Counted from the stretch's first letter, positions 2,906-30,607 are shown. The stretch is 64,000 nucleotides of DNA from Escherichia coli (GCF_044324785.1 NZ_CP172127.1), one strand, 5' to 3'. Translations and numbers: made by a program. Notes: generated by a model from the letters alone, not told the origin.

Positions 2906-3127
2906 TCAGTTCAGAGTGACGTTCATCAGCCGGACATACGGGCCAAAACTGTCCTTACGGCGTTCAGCAAACACGGCCAGCACACCGGGAATATCCTGCA
3001 CTTCACGACCGGTATACGCCTCAGCACTGCCGTGCCAGCGGTATTTGCCGGTACAGAAAGGAAAAAGACGGGATGCCGGATGTTGTTGGTGAATACGCAT
3101 GGCTTCACCACGGGTGATGATTTTCAT
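2906..3127 (-). CDS. YeeT/YkfH-like DUF987 protein (73 aa)
   Basis: MKIITRGEAMRIHQQHPASRLFPFCTGKYRWHGSAEAYTGREVQDIPGVLAVFAERRKD... resembles K-12 YeeT. Synteny radC-like > yeeT-like > antitoxin. Confidence 0.7.
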   Translation of the reverse strand: MKIITRGEAMRIHQQHPASRLFPFCTGKYRWHGSAEAYTGREVQDIPGVLAVFAERRKDSFGPYVRLMNVTLN

Positions 3128-23691: not shown

Positions 23692-24057
23692 ATGATAAAT
23701 CTTCCCGCAGGCACAAAAATCTGGCTGGTTGCCGGTATCACCGATATGCGCAACGGCTTCAATGGTCTCGCCGCAAAGGTGCAGACAGCGTTGAAAGATG
23801 ACCCGATGTCCGGCCACGTCTTCATCTTCCGGGGCCGCAGCGGCAGTCAGGTCAAACTGCTGTGGTCCACCGGCGACGGACTGTGCCTGCTGACCAAAAG
23901 GCTGGAGCGTGGCCGCTTCGCCTGGCCGTCGACCCGCGATGGCAAAGTGTTCCTGATGCCGGCGCAGCTGGCGATGCTGATGGAAGGTATCGACTGGCGA
24001 CAGCCAAAGCGGTTACTGACGTCCCTGACATGTTGTAGCCCAGGTCTTCTTCGTTGA
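23692..24057 (+). pseudogene. IS66-family TnpB, near full length, with a chimeric C-terminal tail across the deletion junction
   Basis: MINLPAGTKIWLVAGITDMRNGFNGLAAKVQTALKDDPMSGHVFIFRGRSGSQVKLLWSTGDGLCLLTKRLERGRFAWP... is a classic IS66 Orf2. The last 8 residues (CCSPGLLR) read into antisense of the neighbouring gene. Confidence 0.75.
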
Positions 24058-24926
24058 TAAAGTTCACATCCAGAGGATGGATACTTCCTGTAGCCCGTAA
24101 TATCGTCGATTCAATATCCTGCACATTCATCGGGATCACCGATGCAAGAAAAGCCCATTGATCAGAATAAGGCTGGAAATTAATATCAACAAAAACGCTT
24201 CCCCCCGATGCACGCGGTCTTTTTTGCAGAGGTAACGCGATAAGATTACCAAATCCTCCTTTTGGCATAGTATCCTGATTAGGAAATAATCGGTCATAAG
24301 AACTCAATTGCAGCTGTCGGGTCCGGCTGCACGTATAGCTAATAATAGCAGTCCCCAGACGGCGAGCTTCGCGGGCCGAAACTCGTGAAGCAAAAAATAT
24401 CCAGACATGCGCTCCCTGACGTGAGCGGGATATTTCCAGCGCAGCAGGTACACTCAGCTCATCACAGGCTCGCATGAACGCGGATGCATCCTTCTGCCAT
24501 TCAGCTTTATCAAAATCAACAGCCAGAAAATAACAGGAATCATCTTCCAGCAACGGATATAACCCGGCAGTATGCGTGCCTGCCAGATGCTGGTAGATGA
24601 CAAGATCAGATACAGGGAGTAACTGACGGTGCGTACAGTCCCCGCATTTTATCCGGGGTTTACCGCATATTCTCGCCTGCCATTCGTTAGCGCAGGCAGG
24701 AGAGTACCCTGATTTGCCGCTGGTTTTACTTTCCCAACGAAGGGCCCATATATCATCACGCCCACGAAACAACCGACGAAATAATGCAACCTTCTCGTCG
24801 GTGGATAATACGGAAACGCGCTGCACAGGGCTCGGCGGTTTACGTCGCCATTCCAAGTAATGAGACCAGACGGGCATTTTCTGCCCTCAATGCAGCTAAT
24901 TCATCGCTGTCAGATTTATGAACCAT
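24033..24926 (-). pseudogene. Remnant of a large primase-polymerase (AEP)-domain protein, probably originally fused to a helicase; 5' frameshift and 3' truncation
   Basis: AEP motifs FLAVDFDKAEW (DxD) and RQGAHVWIFF. The upstream ATG at 24926 gives MVHKSDSDELAALRAENARLVSLL, then a +1 shift (an extra g in cttGgaatgg) into ORF 23852-24877 (EWRRKPPSP...). Homology ends at ...INEEDLGYN (~24033), where antisense IS66 tnpB begins. Confidence 0.6.
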
Positions 24927-25080
24927 ATTCGTTACCTGTATCCGATCCACTGAGGCACCACGGCAGAAATTCGGGTCCCCTACACTGATGACAAAGCGCC
25001 CCGCCCTCTTCTGCCTATTAACTCAAGCACCTCCCAACAACTTACAGAAACTTAATTCTAATACCTAATACAGCTGTAAT

Positions 25081-25644
25081 TCAGTTGTGTCGTGGTCGGC
25101 CCCGGTTACTTTTTTCGGGAAGCCTGCTACGGCCCAGAATAATACCGTGTTCTTTCTGATCCTGTTTAGCCAGGTAGCTGAGGGCGTAACGTAAGTCGTC
25201 TACTGCGGACTTATCACTATAGTGAATCACGTGATCGATACGCACCGGGTATTTATCTTTAGCCCGGCACAGATGAAAATAACCCTCCCCTTCCGTGATC
25301 CGCCTCCAGATATCCCCCAGTTGCCTGGATATCTGATAAGAGTTCTTGTGACGTTGCCCATCCAGATAGCCGATAAAATGAATATGAAGCCCTTTGTCTG
25401 GTGTATATTCCATAACCCAGTAATATCCTGCCAACATCGTCTGGGTTTCGCTAAGTAAACGGTATATTTCCATACACATACTGTGCTTACAGGAATGCCC
25501 GAAACTGGGCGTGTCTTTCCTGTAGGCAAAATCAATTCTGAAAGGTAACAGTTTAGAAAAACGTTGAAACAATCCCTCCATGTGTTCATTCACATCTTTC
25601 AGAATCGCGAAATTCATTTCGTAATTGGGATTGGCATTATACAT
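25081..25644 (-). CDS. YfjJ/YagK-like protein (inovirus Gp2-type domain), 187 aa
   Basis: Pattern ...LLPFRIDFAYRKD...GYYWVMEYTPDKGLHIHFIGYLDG...IWRRITEGEGYFHLC... resembles the YagK/YfjJ family of CP4-6/CP4-57. Assignment from memory. Confidence 0.6.
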   Translation of the reverse strand: MYNANPNYEMNFAILKDVNEHMEGLFQRFSKLLPFRIDFAYRKDTPSFGHSCKHSMCMEIYRLLSETQTMLAGYYWVMEYTPDKGLHIHFIGYLDGQRHKNSYQISRQLGDIWRRITEGEGYFHLCRAKDKYPVRIDHVIHYSDKSAVDDLRYALSYLAKQDQKEHGIILGRSRLPEKSNRGRPRHN

Positions 25645-26775
25645 TTTATAGTCCTTAATTTATAAAACTCACAGGAAGAGGAAATTATGTAAATACTGAG
25701 AGAACATAAACGCCGTAGCACGGCATTAATAAACGAAGTAAACCAGCAGCACAGACACCCTGATAAAACTGTTTTGTATTACCGCATCGCTGTAACGAGG
25801 TAATACTTCAGAATTCAGTGAGGCTCTCTTAAACAGAGGACCAGTAAGAATTACAATGGTAAAAACACACCTCATAGAATTGAGTTTAAGGAAGCACCAT
25901 TCACTCAACCTGACATTCACAAAAGTCAGTACCAGGTGGCCTCAGGTAACATCGCTATTAATATTATCCTGCCATTAAGTAAAAACAGAAACTCTGTGAG
26001 GAAGTCTCACCAATATTTGACCAGTAGCATAAAGAATAACGATATGAGAGATACGCCCACACCAGAGATGATTACCCCATACAAAAAGATAATATTTATT
26101 AATACCACCGCACCTCAATAGACTAATAACACACTAATAGCGTTTTGGTACACACTTAACACTAACTATGCACCAGACACATACTCAGGATTAACATTCC
26201 CAACATTTATGGTACTCTCAAAGAGTATAATTCACCACACAGGTAAACTCTCACACCAGTAGTATGGAGATAATGCTGTACACATACTTACAGAGTAAAG
26301 TGTACAGTTAGCATACAGTGGCGAGCAGACATTACAACATAAAGACATAAGATAGCATAATAAGAACATAACAAAACTCCCACTAATAATACTAATTAAC
26401 CTTAATTCTTTTTTGAACAGGAAATCAACATAGCTCCAGACCTCTTCAGGTCATACACTTTTGTATTGGATGTTCAATGTGTACTTCTGCACAAACAAAA
26501 AAATAAAACCCGCAAAATAAAATATCAGCCCCAAAAATACAGCGTGAAACACCACGTTATGGATATGTTTTCATATCACCAGAAGCATATTTCACACATA
26601 CAATACAGAAACAATTCATCATATAATCAGGGTTACTGTTCACTCCTCTCGGTTATCCGCGAGACGATAAAACATGACACTAATCACAAAAACGAGAGAT
26701 AGTATTTGCGAAATATAAACAACATAAAAATCAATGCGTTGCGATTTTTTATTTTTTCAGACATGCATGCCCCCT

Positions 26776-26811
26776 CTGCTATTGTTGCTAGCCGGCTAGC
26801 AACAATAGCAG
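26776..26811. repeat. Perfect 36-bp palindrome
   Basis: ctgctattgttgctagcc|ggctagcaacaatagcag, with the two 18-nt halves exactly reverse-complementary. Lies 43 nt past the stop of the 607-aa gene. No U-tract on either strand. Confidence 0.95.
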
Positions 26812-26853
26812 GGATATACAAACATCGGATGCCAAAAACACGTTCCGATAATA

Positions 26854-28677
26854 TCATCGAGGATCTGACTGGTTGTTTTTAGTATCATCACCACAAATGA
26901 TGGTTAATGCGTTGTAGATCAGTCTGCGTCTGTTCTTGTTTTCAGCATTATTTCCATACAACATCATGACGTTTTTAATATCATCAACCGGTGATATTAC
27001 ATAATCAACCAATACGCCAAGCTTCTCAATACATTGCAGTAAAGTATATTTGTGTCTGCCCGTAAATAATCCTATCAGGTTTTCTTTACTTTCACGACTG
27101 GATAATATTTTGTTCTCTGTAATTAATTCAGCCAACGTTTCACCATCGTAAACACGTTCTTTATCTATCAGAATATTTATCTTATCTAACGCCCTCTCTA
27201 CATTATCAAGAAGACCTGTAATATACGGAGGCTGAATATCTGACTTTGTACTAATATTTGCAAGCATCGAATTATACATTTTAATGACACGCATCAGAGT
27301 AAAATTATTCGCATCATATTGTATTTCATCTTCATTATACGCAGGATCCGTCACGACCCTTAAGTCCATAAATGCATCCTGATAAGCTTTTACATAATCA
27401 AGTAATTCGAACAGTGAACCATGCTTTATTTTCTCCCTGTTTAATTTGATCTCCAGCGCTATCCTGAGAACTGAAAAAGCGCCGGGAAGATACCCAGAAG
27501 GTAACTCGTATTTTGGGGATTCATCATAAAACCGAAGAGCTTTGTGGAGTTTGTTCCGCCGAATCAGATAAATAAGGACGGCCAGTAACATGTAGCACCT
27601 GGTCACATAACCACGGGCATTCTGCAACTGTTCAAAATAATTAATAATGTTTTCCAGATATACATCATCATAACTTTTCTTATCAGAAAGATTAAACACC
27701 ATATCTTTTAAAGATTCGATATATTCTTGTGATTTATCATCAAGTGACACAATATAACGAGTTAATGCTCCTTTGGGGCCACTCTCAAACTCATGAAACC
27801 GTTCAAGTAATGCTCTTGCATAAGGCGTTGTGTCAAAAATATTAAAATCATAAAGATAGCGTGCAGCGTAGCCATACAACCCATGTACCCAAAGCCCTTC
27901 TCTTATCAGCACTCTGAGATAATATGCAATACTGTCAAGTATCTTTACCTTCCGTTGCATATCAAGCAAAATACTTAATGAATAAAATGCATAATAGAAC
28001 TTGTCAATGTTGTTGAGTATTCTGTCCAGCTCACTCTTATCAAGCTTCTTCTCTCTGTAATCCTTCTTGTATTCATTCTTACAGGCCTTTATATATTGTT
28101 TCATAAGGCTCTTCCTTTTACCGTACCCTTTTCGAATAGTTCCCTGGTATTTTCCCAGCTCATACATTTTTCCGTTTTCCCGAAAATCTTCTCTGTTAAA
28201 TCCCAGTTCAGCAAGATACTCCCGGAGATAACGTTTAACGGCAGCCTCATCGCTTTCTGTACCAGAGTAATCCAGGCAGGGACAATATGATTTTTGCAAA
28301 AAATTATAGATATGATAATAAAACCCTGTTTCATTCTCCGGACGATATGTGTTATATATATCCAGCACAATAAAAACAACTCCAAAGCTTTTCAGAAAAT
28401 AGTTACGGATATATTCGGACTTTAATGTTGAATACACAGGGTAAGAATTCATCATGTAATAAAAATATTCATACCGGGAAAATATAATTCGCCGTTGTTC
28501 CAGACTATACACCCCTTCAGCATCAATAATTTGACTGAGCTCATTATAACGTTGATCCCAGAATCTTTGATGCGCTCCAAAATCAGTACTCTTCCGCTTA
28601 TCTCTCGGACTCTCTCCTTCCTTAAACAACTCAAAAACTGTACAAATATCATACAAAAGATTTGTAAACATGCGCAT
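26854..28677 (-). CDS. Orphan hypothetical protein, 607 aa, AT-rich, predicted helical, no motif I recognise
   Basis: Longest uninterrupted ORF in an AT-rich stretch where random ORFs should be short. Divergent from alpA across an 88-bp gap. Tyr/Lys/Leu/Ile-rich. No Walker A, nuclease, DxD or HxH signature that I can identify. Confidence 0.65.
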   Translation of the reverse strand: MRMFTNLLYDICTVFELFKEGESPRDKRKSTDFGAHQRFWDQRYNELSQIIDAEGVYSLEQRRIIFSRYEYFYYMMNSYPVYSTLKSEYIRNYFLKSFGVVFIVLDIYNTYRPENETGFYYHIYNFLQKSYCPCLDYSGTESDEAAVKRYLREYLAELGFNREDFRENGKMYELGKYQGTIRKGYGKRKSLMKQYIKACKNEYKKDYREKKLDKSELDRILNNIDKFYYAFYSLSILLDMQRKVKILDSIAYYLRVLIREGLWVHGLYGYAARYLYDFNIFDTTPYARALLERFHEFESGPKGALTRYIVSLDDKSQEYIESLKDMVFNLSDKKSYDDVYLENIINYFEQLQNARGYVTRCYMLLAVLIYLIRRNKLHKALRFYDESPKYELPSGYLPGAFSVLRIALEIKLNREKIKHGSLFELLDYVKAYQDAFMDLRVVTDPAYNEDEIQYDANNFTLMRVIKMYNSMLANISTKSDIQPPYITGLLDNVERALDKINILIDKERVYDGETLAELITENKILSSRESKENLIGLFTGRHKYTLLQCIEKLGVLVDYVISPVDDIKNVMMLYGNNAENKNRRRLIYNALTIICGDDTKNNQSDPR

Positions 28678-28765
28678 CTGCTCTGATCTCCGGTTGGTTT
28701 CCGTTTTATCACAGGGGACATTCTGGCCTTAACGTAGCAAATTAATGACATAGCCTTCAACTCAC

Positions 28766-29026
28766 ATGGAGAACAATATGTCAACCCAGACCGGACATTT
28801 TTATACCCCCTCACGCATCCTGCGTATGGCTGAACTTACCCGACTCCTTGGTATATCAAGATCGACCATCTACGAAAAAATGAATCCGGCATCAAAATAC
28901 TACGATGCCACCTTTCCCCGGCCTGTCCGGCTTGGGAGTTCGGCTGTAGGCTGGCGGGCATCTGCCATTGATGAGTGGTTAACTTTACATACAACACCAA
29001 CCAGATCCGTAACTAAGGATAAATAA
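28766..29026 (+). CDS. alpA: AlpA-family phage/island transcriptional regulator (HTH)
   Basis: ...RILRMAELTRLLGISRSTIYEKMNPASKYYDATFPRPVRLGSSAVGWRASAIDEWL... is the AlpA/Phage_AlpA signature. Followed 16 nt later by the yfjI-like gene. Confidence 0.8.
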   Translation: MENNMSTQTGHFYTPSRILRMAELTRLLGISRSTIYEKMNPASKYYDATFPRPVRLGSSAVGWRASAIDEWLTLHTTPTRSVTKDK

Positions 29027-29041
29027 GGAAAACTGTACGCC

Positions 29042-30607
29042 ATGACAAAATTATCCCCCCCTGAACTTGACATAACTAAACTGCCTGACAGGTGCCAGGC
29101 ATTACTTGATGAAATGCATGAAGAAACGGGAATAAGCCGTGAAATACTGCTGTCTGTTATGCTGACGGTCAAGGCTGTCTCGGTCCAGGATACGCATGAA
29201 GTTGAACTTTCTGGAGGGCAGCGTACCAGTCTTCAGATATATATGTGTCTTTCATCAGCATCAGGCAGTGGAAAAACCTCTGCCTGCGCAAAATTAATCG
29301 CCCCTGTTCATGAAACAGAAGAAGAACTACATCAGGCATATATCGACGATAAAAAAAACTATGATCGCATGATGGAAATGTGGACAACAGATAAAAAAAT
29401 CCTGGAGCGGAGATATAAAAAGGAAATGGAAAGATCCCCGGAAAATGCTGCTGCTGCACGAGCAGCGCTTGAAAAGTGTATAGCAAATAAACCCGTACCT
29501 CCCGTACAACAGGTTCTCATCGTGAATGACGCGACACCAGAAGGGATAGCTTTGAAACTCAGCCAGTCACCTTCTCTTCTGTTGCTGTCTGATGAAGGAG
29601 GAACTATTCTGGATAAGCGTTTCGAACGCAAATCGGCGCTGTACAACACATTATGGAGTGGGCAACCAGTCACCGTAGAACGGGCATCCAGACCCGGGTT
29701 CCGGGTAAAGGATTCCCGTCTCACTATGCTTATACTGACTCAACCGGTAATATTTGATAAGTTTTTTACTCTCACTGGCGACCAGATCCGGGGCAATGGC
29801 TTTCTGGCCCGGGTGCTATTTTGCGAACCCGGAGCAAATAAAATAATGACGACAGAACCGCATACTGCCACTCCTGTTGTAACGCAGCAATGTGCAACCT
29901 GTTTTCATGAGAAAAGTTTTGGCAGTCAGATCAGAGACTCTCTGAGAGCGTCCCGGGAAAGGCGTGCAAAAGGTGAGCAACGCATCCGCATGACATTATC
30001 ACACGCAGCATCCCACGATCTGGAAATCTTTCACGAAGAAAATATGAGTGCTGTCAGGCAGAACCCACGTATGACCACTTTCGAAGACATTATCGTCAGG
30101 AAAAGAGAACAGGCTGTTCGAATAGCCGCACTTCTGGAGCTGGAGAACAATCCACATGGTACAGTAATAACACGAGAAAGTATCAATAGTGCTATTTATC
30201 TCGTTGATTTTTATTTTCAGCATCTTATATCCAAACTGGAATCACTTCGGGAAATATCTCCTGCAGAAAAACTGGATAAATGGCTCAGAGAAAATATCAT
30301 CCGGGTAAAAGGATACGAATATCAAAAAAGCCATATACTACAATATGGTCCATATGCTCTCAGGAATAAATGTGTTCTTGATGAAGCACTTGATATACTT
30401 GCAGAACAGAAAAAAATCGTAATTGATTATTCAATCGGCCAAAAAATCATTTATATCGGTGACGCGATTACACCTTGTGAATTAGCAAATGAGGCAAACA
30501 TCCCGATAATGGAGCGTGGAATGTTTATAGTCTGTTGGGACCATAAGCTGAATAAGTACAGAAATGAAGAACAGACTAAAATATGGAACATAACTACAAA
30601 AAATTAA
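29042..30607 (+). CDS. YfjI-like DUF3987 protein (P4-type replication/helicase-related), 521 aa
   Basis: P-loop-like SASGSGKTSA. ...VNDATPEGIALKLSQSPSLLLLSDEGGTILDKRF...GQPVTVERASRPGF...LTMLILTQP... is typical of DUF3987. alpA-yfjI synteny as in CP4-57. Confidence 0.7.
   Translation: MTKLSPPELDITKLPDRCQALLDEMHEETGISREILLSVMLTVKAVSVQDTHEVELSGGQRTSLQIYMCLSSASGSGKTSACAKLIAPVHETEEELHQAYIDDKKNYDRMMEMWTTDKKILERRYKKEMERSPENAAAARAALEKCIANKPVPPVQQVLIVNDATPEGIALKLSQSPSLLLLSDEGGTILDKRFERKSALYNTLWSGQPVTVERASRPGFRVKDSRLTMLILTQPVIFDKFFTLTGDQIRGNGFLARVLFCEPGANKIMTTEPHTATPVVTQQCATCFHEKSFGSQIRDSLRASRERRAKGEQRIRMTLSHAASHDLEIFHEENMSAVRQNPRMTTFEDIIVRKREQAVRIAALLELENNPHGTVITRESINSAIYLVDFYFQHLISKLESLREISPAEKLDKWLRENIIRVKGYEYQKSHILQYGPYALRNKCVLDEALDILAEQKKIVIDYSIGQKIIYIGDAITPCELANEANIPIMERGMFIVCWDHKLNKYRNEEQTKIWNITTKN

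Follow-up and report, generated by a model that had tools for sequence, protein, structure and literature searches.

A conserved 22-bp box ahead of YfjJ-type genes in a strand-skewed, gene-free tract of a CP4-57-like Escherichia coli island

Several described systems resemble parts of the locus reported here. The Escherichia coli K-12 islands CP4-57 (yfjI-yfjJ) and CP4-6 (yagK) carry an integrase, AlpA, a DUF3987/YfjI protein and a YfjJ/YagK HUH-like protein, rolling-circle modules are represented by inovirus gene II with the f1 intergenic region and by the Rep proteins of CRESS-DNA viruses and plasmids, and long leaders by the phage P4 PLE leader and the lambda PR'/tR' region. The subject of this study is a gene-free tract, positions 25645-26853 of a 64,000-nt stretch of E. 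coli DNA (NZ_CP172127.1; hereafter the window) whose sequence is identical to that of E. coli CFSAN061769, and in particular a conserved 22-bp box that lies within this tract ahead of a yfjJ-like gene.

The locus shares with the rolling-circle modules a co-oriented non-coding region upstream of a gene for a protein with HxH and YxxK motifs and a Rep-like fold, an AT-rich conserved box containing TAGTATTAT or TAATATTAT, and, in several lineages, adjoining short direct repeats. It differs from them in having no conserved stem-loop at the putative nick site, in belonging to a tyrosine-integrase island rather than to a plasmid or phage, and in the placing of the box 62-1138 nt from the gene, with another gene between the two in one lineage. 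The likeness to the P4 and lambda leaders consists of a -10-like element with an operator-like inverted repeat, followed by a long untranslated stretch with terminator-like hairpins; as for P4, the element here lies in a P4/CP4-57-like alpA-helicase module. Unlike those leaders, it has no -35 element, its start is only predicted, and there was no C4/CI or other Rfam match. Relative to the K-12 islands, K-12 YfjJ is 23% identical to the protein of the window, the yfjI-yfjJ gap is 152 bp, the box is absent at both K-12 yfjJ and K-12 yagK, and the two K-12 proteins retain the HxH and Y..K motifs and lack the C-terminal RGRPR tail described below. Island-borne hha paralogues (Hha/YmoA, PF05321) provide a further comparison, as one occupies the slot between box and yfjJ-type gene in a sister lineage (lineage B) and none is detectable in the window tract.

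Two other comparisons were dropped. The AlpA antiterminator of Pseudomonas aeruginosa is 21Q-like, with a C-terminal helix-turn-helix at about residues 128-142 (PMC9371919), and the island AlpA is an 86-aa PF05930 protein unlike it; E. coli-type AlpA proteins (PF05930, about 70-86 aa) differ from the P. aeruginosa protein and a mechanism is not transferable by name. The small RNA Esr41 lies in O-island 43, between z1181 and z1182 (PMC8565820), which is another region than the tract.

The tract is a composite intergenic region in a CP4-57-like integrative island and is neither a gene nor a single RNA. The box within it, AATTAAGGTTAATTAGTATTAT, has a single match in the window, where 0.01 would be expected. 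A contig scan with the single YfjJ protein returned close relatives only; distant YfjJ-type proteins, at 34-58% identity, were identified in Erwinia, Citrobacter, Yersinia, Limnobaculum and Rouxiella by a protein search followed by contig look-ups. All of these distant loci had long gene-free upstream regions, and the sole sequence they shared with the window was the box, in the orientation of the gene; it was kept upstream of the YfjJ-type genes of Erwinia, Citrobacter and Yersinia at 42-58% protein identity. An exact-pattern scan for the box identified 67 loci (1 viral and 66 metagenome), of which 54 had a YfjJ-type gene that followed the box on its own strand at a distance of 103-1138 nt; orientation and position upstream of the gene were constant across these 54 loci. 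Eleven of the remaining loci ended at a contig edge before the gene, one was interrupted and one was from an unrelated low-G+C organism. In this last locus (L067, 386-407) the exact 22-nt box stands ahead of a gene for acyl carrier protein; a yfjJ-type gene is absent from its surroundings, and the match was attributed to chance in AT-rich DNA. The distances from box to ATG fell into classes of 103-104, 133-136, 164-177, 250, 566-787 (lineage A, to which the window belongs and which is found in E. coli and E. albertii) and 903-1138 nt (lineage B); one more distant relative had a degenerate copy only 62 nt ahead of the ATG.

Similarity between lineages starts abruptly at the first A of the box, and the sequences upstream of it are wholly different. 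The TATTAT hexamer of the box is conserved and matches the -10 consensus at 5/6 positions, and a semi-conserved RRAGT follows the box after a variable 5-7 nt; such a variable spacing followed by a purine-rich motif is the pattern expected around a transcription start. The box also contains TAGTATTAT, which resembles CRESS-type nonanucleotides: TAGTATTAT and TAATATTAT match the CRESS/nanovirus nonanucleotides TAGTATTAC and TAATATTAC at 8/9 positions. The only possible stem at the box (TTAAT/ATTAA, 4-5 A-T pairs) was not maintained across lineages. Likenesses to Xer/dif, MqsA and IHF sites were weighed by eye and dropped. In Limnobaculum parvum (L085, 3042-4000), a box-like site lies 937 nt upstream of the yfjJ-type gene, at the head of a spacer that lacks open reading frames (ORFs) and became long independently, and a second, degenerate box-like site lies about 130 nt upstream of the same gene.

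Short direct repeats adjoin the box in several lineages. Directly 3' of the box in lineage B, Tandem Repeats Finder (TRF) identified a 13-nt unit repeated 8 times (score 109-136); in L038 and others this array fills the first ~130 nt past the box with about 8 copies of consensus CTGTAATTCTACC, alternating with TGTAAATGAAC-type units, and has an iteron-like look. The Citrobacter locus has two 15-nt direct repeats after the box, which were spotted by eye and are unscored, and some lineage A members have 12-14-nt units in two copies just past the box. In the window copy TRF found no repeats at score 30. A k-mer enrichment analysis for iterons, which is confounded by shared ancestry, gave no clear iteron.

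The protein encoded beside the box has the hallmarks of an HUH nuclease. Residues W76, V77, E79, H87, H89, Y157, K160 and R181 were invariant in alignments of 17 and of 25 sequences, Q163 was invariant among the 25 sequences and reached at least 90% conservation among the 17, and a C-terminal G-R-P-R after R181 was conserved in at least 90% of sequences. The AlphaFold model (pLDDT, the predicted local distance difference test score, 89.8) places the HxH motif on a beta-strand and Y157 on a helix, and its predicted fold matches Rep and NS1 nucleases, so that an HUH metal-binding motif and a catalytic tyrosine (YxxK) are found together in a Rep-type fold. A Pfam match to REP_ORF2-G2P was weak, and the YfjJ profile had no significant match among PDB sequences. 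Based on the conserved motifs, their placement in the model and the weak REP_ORF2-G2P match, the evidence supports the YfjJ-type protein being an HUH single-tyrosine nuclease. The RGRPR tail, found in the box-associated subfamily, has the sequence of an AT-hook core and would fit a box with AATTAA and TTAATT tracts. The features of the locus are collected in Table 1.

Table 1. Features in and around the gene-free tract, in window coordinates
Feature	Position	Strand	Remarks
YfjJ/YagK-type gene, 187 aa	25081-25644	-	Candidate HUH rolling-circle Rep-like nuclease; C-terminal RGRPR AT-hook-like tail; tract lies upstream
Spacer, 741 nt	25645-26385	-	Lineage-specific, non-coding, putative untranslated leader; ends at yfjJ-like ATG
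Hairpin hp1, GCCGT-GCT-ACGGC, extendable to 8 bp	25709-25727	-	From terminator scan; followed by GTTTATGTTCTCT on sense strand; 65-85 nt before ATG
Hairpin hp2, inverted repeat of up to ~13 bp (~11 in consensus)	25776-25806	-	TATTACCTCATTA...TAATGAGGTAATA in relatives; partly degraded in window
Hairpin hp3, G-U-rich, sense-strand fold only	26030-26064	-	From terminator scan; followed by TTATTCTTTA; terminator-like
Box AATTAAGGTTAATTAGTATTAT	26386-26407 (with RRAGT: 26376-26407)	-	Inverted repeat AATTAA-GG-TTAATT; -10-like TATTAT hexamer
3' trailer of 607-aa gene	26408-26853	-	Part of 607-aa gene module only
Perfect 18+18 palindrome, CTGCTATTGTTGCTAGCC and GGCTAGCAACAATAGCAG	26776-26811	.	Arms 100% complementary; 42 nt past 607-aa stop
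607-aa hypothetical gene	26854-28677	-	Divergent from alpA-DUF3987

The tract as a whole was drawn to attention by its composition. Its plus strand is 38.5% A, 21.5% C, 15.1% G and 24.8% T, its G+C content is 36.6% compared to 49% for the window, and its GC skew and AT skew are -0.17 and +0.22, respectively. The skew is present in each 200-nt sub-block, and when both are combined the tract ranks first among all 1209-nt windows in the 64 kb, with 0.08% of windows reaching its value. These counts bear out the preliminary description, which had reported an AT-rich, gene-free tract with an A/C-rich plus strand and an unusual, sustained skew, placed between a yfjJ-like gene and a 607-aa gene. Its statement that no ORF exceeds about 78 codons is right for ORFs with a start codon, the longest being 78 aa (26466-26702, plus strand), and not for stop-free stretches, which reach 99 and 98 codons on the plus strand. 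The 36-bp palindrome said to end the tract exists and is perfect, although it sits 42 nt inside it. The hydrophobic minus-strand peptides that had been noted are explained by that strand being 39% T, and the peptide quoted as an example shifts frame after residue 24; the actual translation of its ORF (26232-26369, minus strand) is MFLLCYLMSLCCNVCSPLYANCTLYSVSMCTALSPYYWCESLPVW. This mini-ORF has GGGAG 7 nt ahead of its ATG, contrary to the view that none had a convincing start context; its reading frame was not conserved among related sequences.

Comparison across genomes showed that the tract is a mosaic. The whole of it is held by 155 of 5,426 E. coli genomes; about 1,500 of the 5,426 match it, nearly all of them only in the yfjJ-side part (25645-25996, ~84% identical) and one short block (26368-26428, ~87% identical). 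The other matching islands have alpA, yfjI, a gap of 820-1010 bp and yfjJ, all on a single strand, and BLAST similarity to these other island types ends exactly at 26428. Alignment of eight such gaps revealed three zones: a conserved gene-proximal zone whose small indels do not come in multiples of three, a middle zone that is hypervariable and has large indels, and a near-invariant core at 26376-26408. Based on the end of similarity at 26428 and on this zoned alignment, 26408-26853 belongs with the module of the 607-aa gene and 25645-26407 with that of yfjJ. The island of E. coli NCTC10444 (L004, ~3030-3060) ends about 25 nt ahead of the box, at a junction with DNA beside putP; together with the junction at 26428, this suggests recurrent recombination just upstream of the box. 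The comparison with related islands, which had been proposed at the outset, found the yfjJ-side part and the box conserved, and the K-12 CP4-57 and CP4-6 loci without the box. In RefSeq the tract had no annotation in any of 1,498 matching E. coli genomes. Phage collections gave no match, and plasmid collections gave few, to large records of up to 4.8 Mb (possibly mis-assigned chromosome), each covering at most 47% of the tract.

In lineage B, an ORF of the Hha family (PF05321, E 2.4e-26) lies between the box and the yfjJ-type gene. About 9 loci have an intact copy (107-117 aa), among them L054 (8637-8987), L021, L026, L034, L043, L049 and L071, whereas many others, for example L065, L069, L074 and L079, have a frameshifted or fragmented one.

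Between box and gene, the spacers of lineage A had neither DNA nor tblastx similarity to lineage B spacers or to the short leaders of other lineages. In the window the sense strand of the spacer is 39% T, 21% G, 23% A and 16% C, and other lineage A spacers keep these proportions (T 38-41%, G 19-22%, A 23-26%, C 15-16%) even where they are unalignable. The spacer measures 579 nt in E. coli O157:H7 Sakai/EDL933 and 730 nt in Nissle 1917. The lineage B spacer is mildly T-rich. The short leaders (103-250 nt) of other lineages are G-poor on the sense strand with a strong excess of C over G, several being A-rich, and their GC skew is opposite to that of lineage A. Short tandem repeats are found in related copies of the spacer, for example GTTATGTTATCT in two copies and (TATAGG)x9. 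The latter is a hexamer microsatellite (TATAGG or TATAAG) in the middle of the spacer, at the equivalent of ~26100, whose copy number ranges between lineages from 0 to about 9 (L032, spacer positions 294-349; L042, L007 and L031). Spacer indels were mostly of 1, 4, 8 or 13 nt, and the spacer evolves via indels and the expansion of short repeats.

Analyses of secondary structure in the spacer indicated that conserved structure is limited to the two hairpins near the gene. Sliding-window RNAalifold gave a structure conservation index of ~0 on both strands except in the last ~200 nt near the gene, where the two inverted repeats together had 95% of alignment cells paired. In hp2, helix 1 had 96.5% of cells paired, and five pairs varied on one side only with G-U kept on the sense strand. 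One stem pair of hp1 was compensatory, CG changing to UA in two sequences and to AU in one; as 14-18 of 500 shuffles reached the observed covariation, the excess was only modest. The third hairpin, hp3, was kept in most spacer variants and deleted in others, with folding energies of -4.6 to -10.7 kcal/mol for the sense strand versus 0 to -4.4 for the antisense strand. The terminator scan reported 5 sites in the scanned region versus 1.2 expected, 3 of them on the minus (sense) strand. A promoter-like site inside the spacer (~26089-26118) was rejected as its spacing was not conserved.

We tentatively favour, at a little under an even chance, the box being a control site of the yfjJ operon and the spacer its untranslated leader. 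A leader, which the preliminary description had offered alongside a long non-coding RNA, is plausible because a box ending in TATTAT precedes the gene in the same orientation. TATTAT would be the -10 element, with a start near 26379, of a promoter that would depend on an activator or on derepression because it has no conserved -35. The inverted repeat AATTAA-GG-TTAATT would be the operator, to which the AT-hook of YfjJ or an AlpA-type regulator of the island could bind. Transcription of the spacer would yield a long untranslated leader in which the terminator-like hairpins hp3 and hp1 would damp read-through into yfjJ. The position of hha in lineage B, between box and yfjJ, is compatible with a two-gene operon whose promoter is the box.

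Under the control-site reading, the skew would reflect a leader rich in G+U and poor in C, built by GT-rich short repeats. Rho loads on C-rich, G-poor RNA, and for this reason we infer that a long untranslated sense transcript would be under pressure to be C-poor; the leader skew would be tolerated or favoured, as C-poor RNA would load Rho poorly and the complementary strand has the composition Rho prefers. The sense strand of the leader in the window has a mean C minus G of -5.6%, with no 78-nt window above +10%, and 28% of such windows exceed this value on the antisense strand. The independent 937-nt ORF-less leader of Limnobaculum (L085) is likewise C-poor. The excess of T over A is more probably a legacy of the GT-rich repeats from which the spacer is built. 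The skew and the hydrophobic mini-ORFs stem from a fast-evolving GT-rich spacer and not from a hidden gene or a structured RNA.

Several observations weigh against this reading. At the -35 position, as expected for a spacing of 16-18 bp, the sequence is different in every lineage, and a consensus promoter scan did not report the box. A second -10-like element (TATAAT/TATTAT, ~26089-26094) lies in a conserved mid-spacer patch, and for this reason the real start could be elsewhere; the spacing from a -35-like TTACAG to this element varies with the hexamer repeat. The wobble pairs are contradictory as to which strand is folded, those of hp2 favouring the sense strand and those of hp1 the antisense strand. 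The Rho argument covers only the deficit of C relative to G, the excess of T over A is specific to lineage A, and the independent long leaders number two. A literature search returned no transcript data for the region, and the start site, promoter and leader are all predicted.

A different role for the box, which we regard as a real possibility though on the unlikely side, lies in rolling-circle replication driven by the YfjJ-type HUH protein: the box would be the double-strand origin, nicked in or near TAGTATTAT. Rep would bind the repeats downstream as iterons, the gene-proximal hairpins could serve as the single-strand origin, and the G+T-rich, C-poor sense strand would be the displaced one. 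The HxH on a beta-strand, E79, the YxxK on a helix and the predicted Rep/NS1-like fold speak for this, as do an AT-hook-like tail suited to the AATTAA and TTAATT tracts, the 8/9 match of TAGTATTAT and TAATATTAT to nonanucleotides, the lineage-specific tandem repeats straight after the box in lineage B, Citrobacter and lineage A, a DUF3987 helicase encoded in the same module, and recombination between lineages immediately upstream of the box. Against this, no conserved hairpin exposes the putative nick site; the repeats after the box are weak in the window itself, which has one box copy only, and in lineage B hha intervenes between box and rep. Moreover, a skew due to single-strandedness should also mark the neighbouring genes, yet the AT skew is confined to the non-coding part. 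It is also conceivable, though plainly unlikely, that the box, the AT-hook-bearing YfjJ-type HUH protein and the DUF3987 helicase form an undescribed rolling-circle module of very common tyrosine-integrase islands in Enterobacterales; there the box would be the nick site or origin, with the strand and hairpins downstream in the roles just named. Rep proteins often autoregulate at their own origin, so the two roles can coexist and the box may serve both as control site with a leader and as origin. The remains of a replication or recombination region had been among the early suggestions for the tract; the link to replication survives in part, in the form of a box beside an HUH Rep-like gene, although this box is intact and deeply conserved and not a remnant.

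We consider it improbable that the spacer is one or more fully eroded genes that once lay between box and yfjJ, such as an hha-like or a T-rich membrane-protein gene. Lineage B holds an often decayed hha in this slot, the sense strand has more G than C and more T than A, as AT-rich membrane-protein genes do, a modest period-3 signal (z 2.5-3.0) occurs in two sub-windows, and the two 98-99-codon open stretches of the plus strand exceed chance by a rough composition-based estimate. However, no hha remnant was detectable in the window tract (tblastn best E 0.2), and with tblastx no other lineage was similar. The two open stretches, used as protein queries, matched only translations of the same DNA and no protein family, and these stretches are confined to the sub-lineage of the window, being broken elsewhere by a 13-nt indel. 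The period-3 signal was weak overall (z at most 3.0), variable sites in candidate mini-ORFs were spread evenly over codon positions (33/29/33 and 29/30/33 among 25 related sequences), and most indels are not multiples of three. Based on this lack of codon periodicity, the non-triplet indels, the matches to own DNA only and the blank tblastx result, the decayed membrane-protein gene proposed at first was not supported. A similarly low probability attaches to the tract serving the island mainly as a nucleation or silencing platform for H-NS (with Hha), or as curved DNA. H-NS generally binds acquired DNA that is AT-rich, the tract has 36.6% G+C in a 49% window, and a Hha paralogue is encoded at the same position in the sister lineage; generic H-NS binding is likely for DNA of such composition. 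A platform of this kind would nonetheless account for neither the strand asymmetry nor the orientation-specific box, and the early proposal of an H-NS nucleation or curved-DNA region was not shown to hold, with A-tracts unphased at ~10.5 bp (AA/TT phasing versus shuffles, z at most 1.8) and a single 8-of-10 match in the tract to the high-affinity motif TCGATAAATT. Finally, a long structured non-coding RNA on either strand is very improbable. The tract offers 1.2 kb with no gene, partly conserved in about 1,500 genomes and with two conserved hairpins, but a scan of 24500-29500 on both strands with Rfam 15, a search the preliminary description had called for, gave 0 matches at an E threshold of 1. 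Both strands have a structure conservation index of ~0 over most of the spacer, whose middle is hypervariable and interrupted by large indels. Of the long non-coding RNA or leader suggested originally, the leader stayed plausible, and no structured RNA was conserved.

On the other side of the box, the trailer goes with the 607-aa gene, whose product had no family in Pfam, NCBIfam, PHROGs or PADLOC. The palindrome has no T-run after it on either strand and for this reason is not a canonical terminator; the terminator scan reported a terminator-like hairpin at 26543-26556 in the trailer. A Citrobacter locus has the same gene order as the window: DUF3987 and AlpA share one strand, and the opposite strand has a 627-aa gene, then a gap, then yfjJ. 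The 627-aa product has 32% identity to that of the 607-aa gene, and at the same place a perfect palindrome, CCCTGCTACAGCTGCTAC-AC-GTAGCAGCTGTAGCAGGG, accompanies it. Both palindromes share the ends CCCTGCTA...TAGCAGGG and their inner arms have changed together; based on this, the hairpin is a conserved partner of the 607-aa-type gene. A 57-codon ORF (26684-26857, minus strand) overlaps the 607-aa stop by ATGA and runs through the palindrome. Within it, an in-frame ATG after GAGGGGG opens a shorter ORF (26684-26764, minus strand) of 26 aa. The peptide it would encode, MSEKIKNRNALIFMLFIFRKYYLSFL, has a charged head followed by a hydrophobic tail and was not conserved in the Citrobacter homologue.

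The order of the island on the plus strand is ISL3/IS66 remnants, a truncated TOTE-type primase pseudogene, the yfjJ-like gene (minus), the tract, the 607-aa gene (minus), alpA (plus), the DUF3987 helicase gene (plus; 'DNA helicase' in PHROG), the tyrosine integrase gene (minus) and ycdU. The TOTE-type archaeo-eukaryotic primase gene (23852-24877, minus strand; Pfam AEP-TOTE, E 5.5e-100) is truncated, frameshifted and cut by IS66 and ISL3; in O157:H7 and other strains the same gene is intact (786 aa) and directly follows yfjJ.

YfjJ/YagK-type proteins are widespread and have no assigned function. Taken by itself, the skewed tract is an untranslated, fast-evolving spacer of an ordinary kind joined to a gene trailer, and it is the box and its link to an HUH-type, AT-hook-tailed family, rather than the skew, that deserve attention. 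The analysis identifies a subfamily of these proteins that combines the hallmarks of HUH nucleases with an AT-hook-like tail and that has the AT-rich box ahead of its gene in nearly every locus. This combination leads us to the hypothesis that the box is the cis site, whether promoter and operator or origin, by which these islands switch on or replicate.

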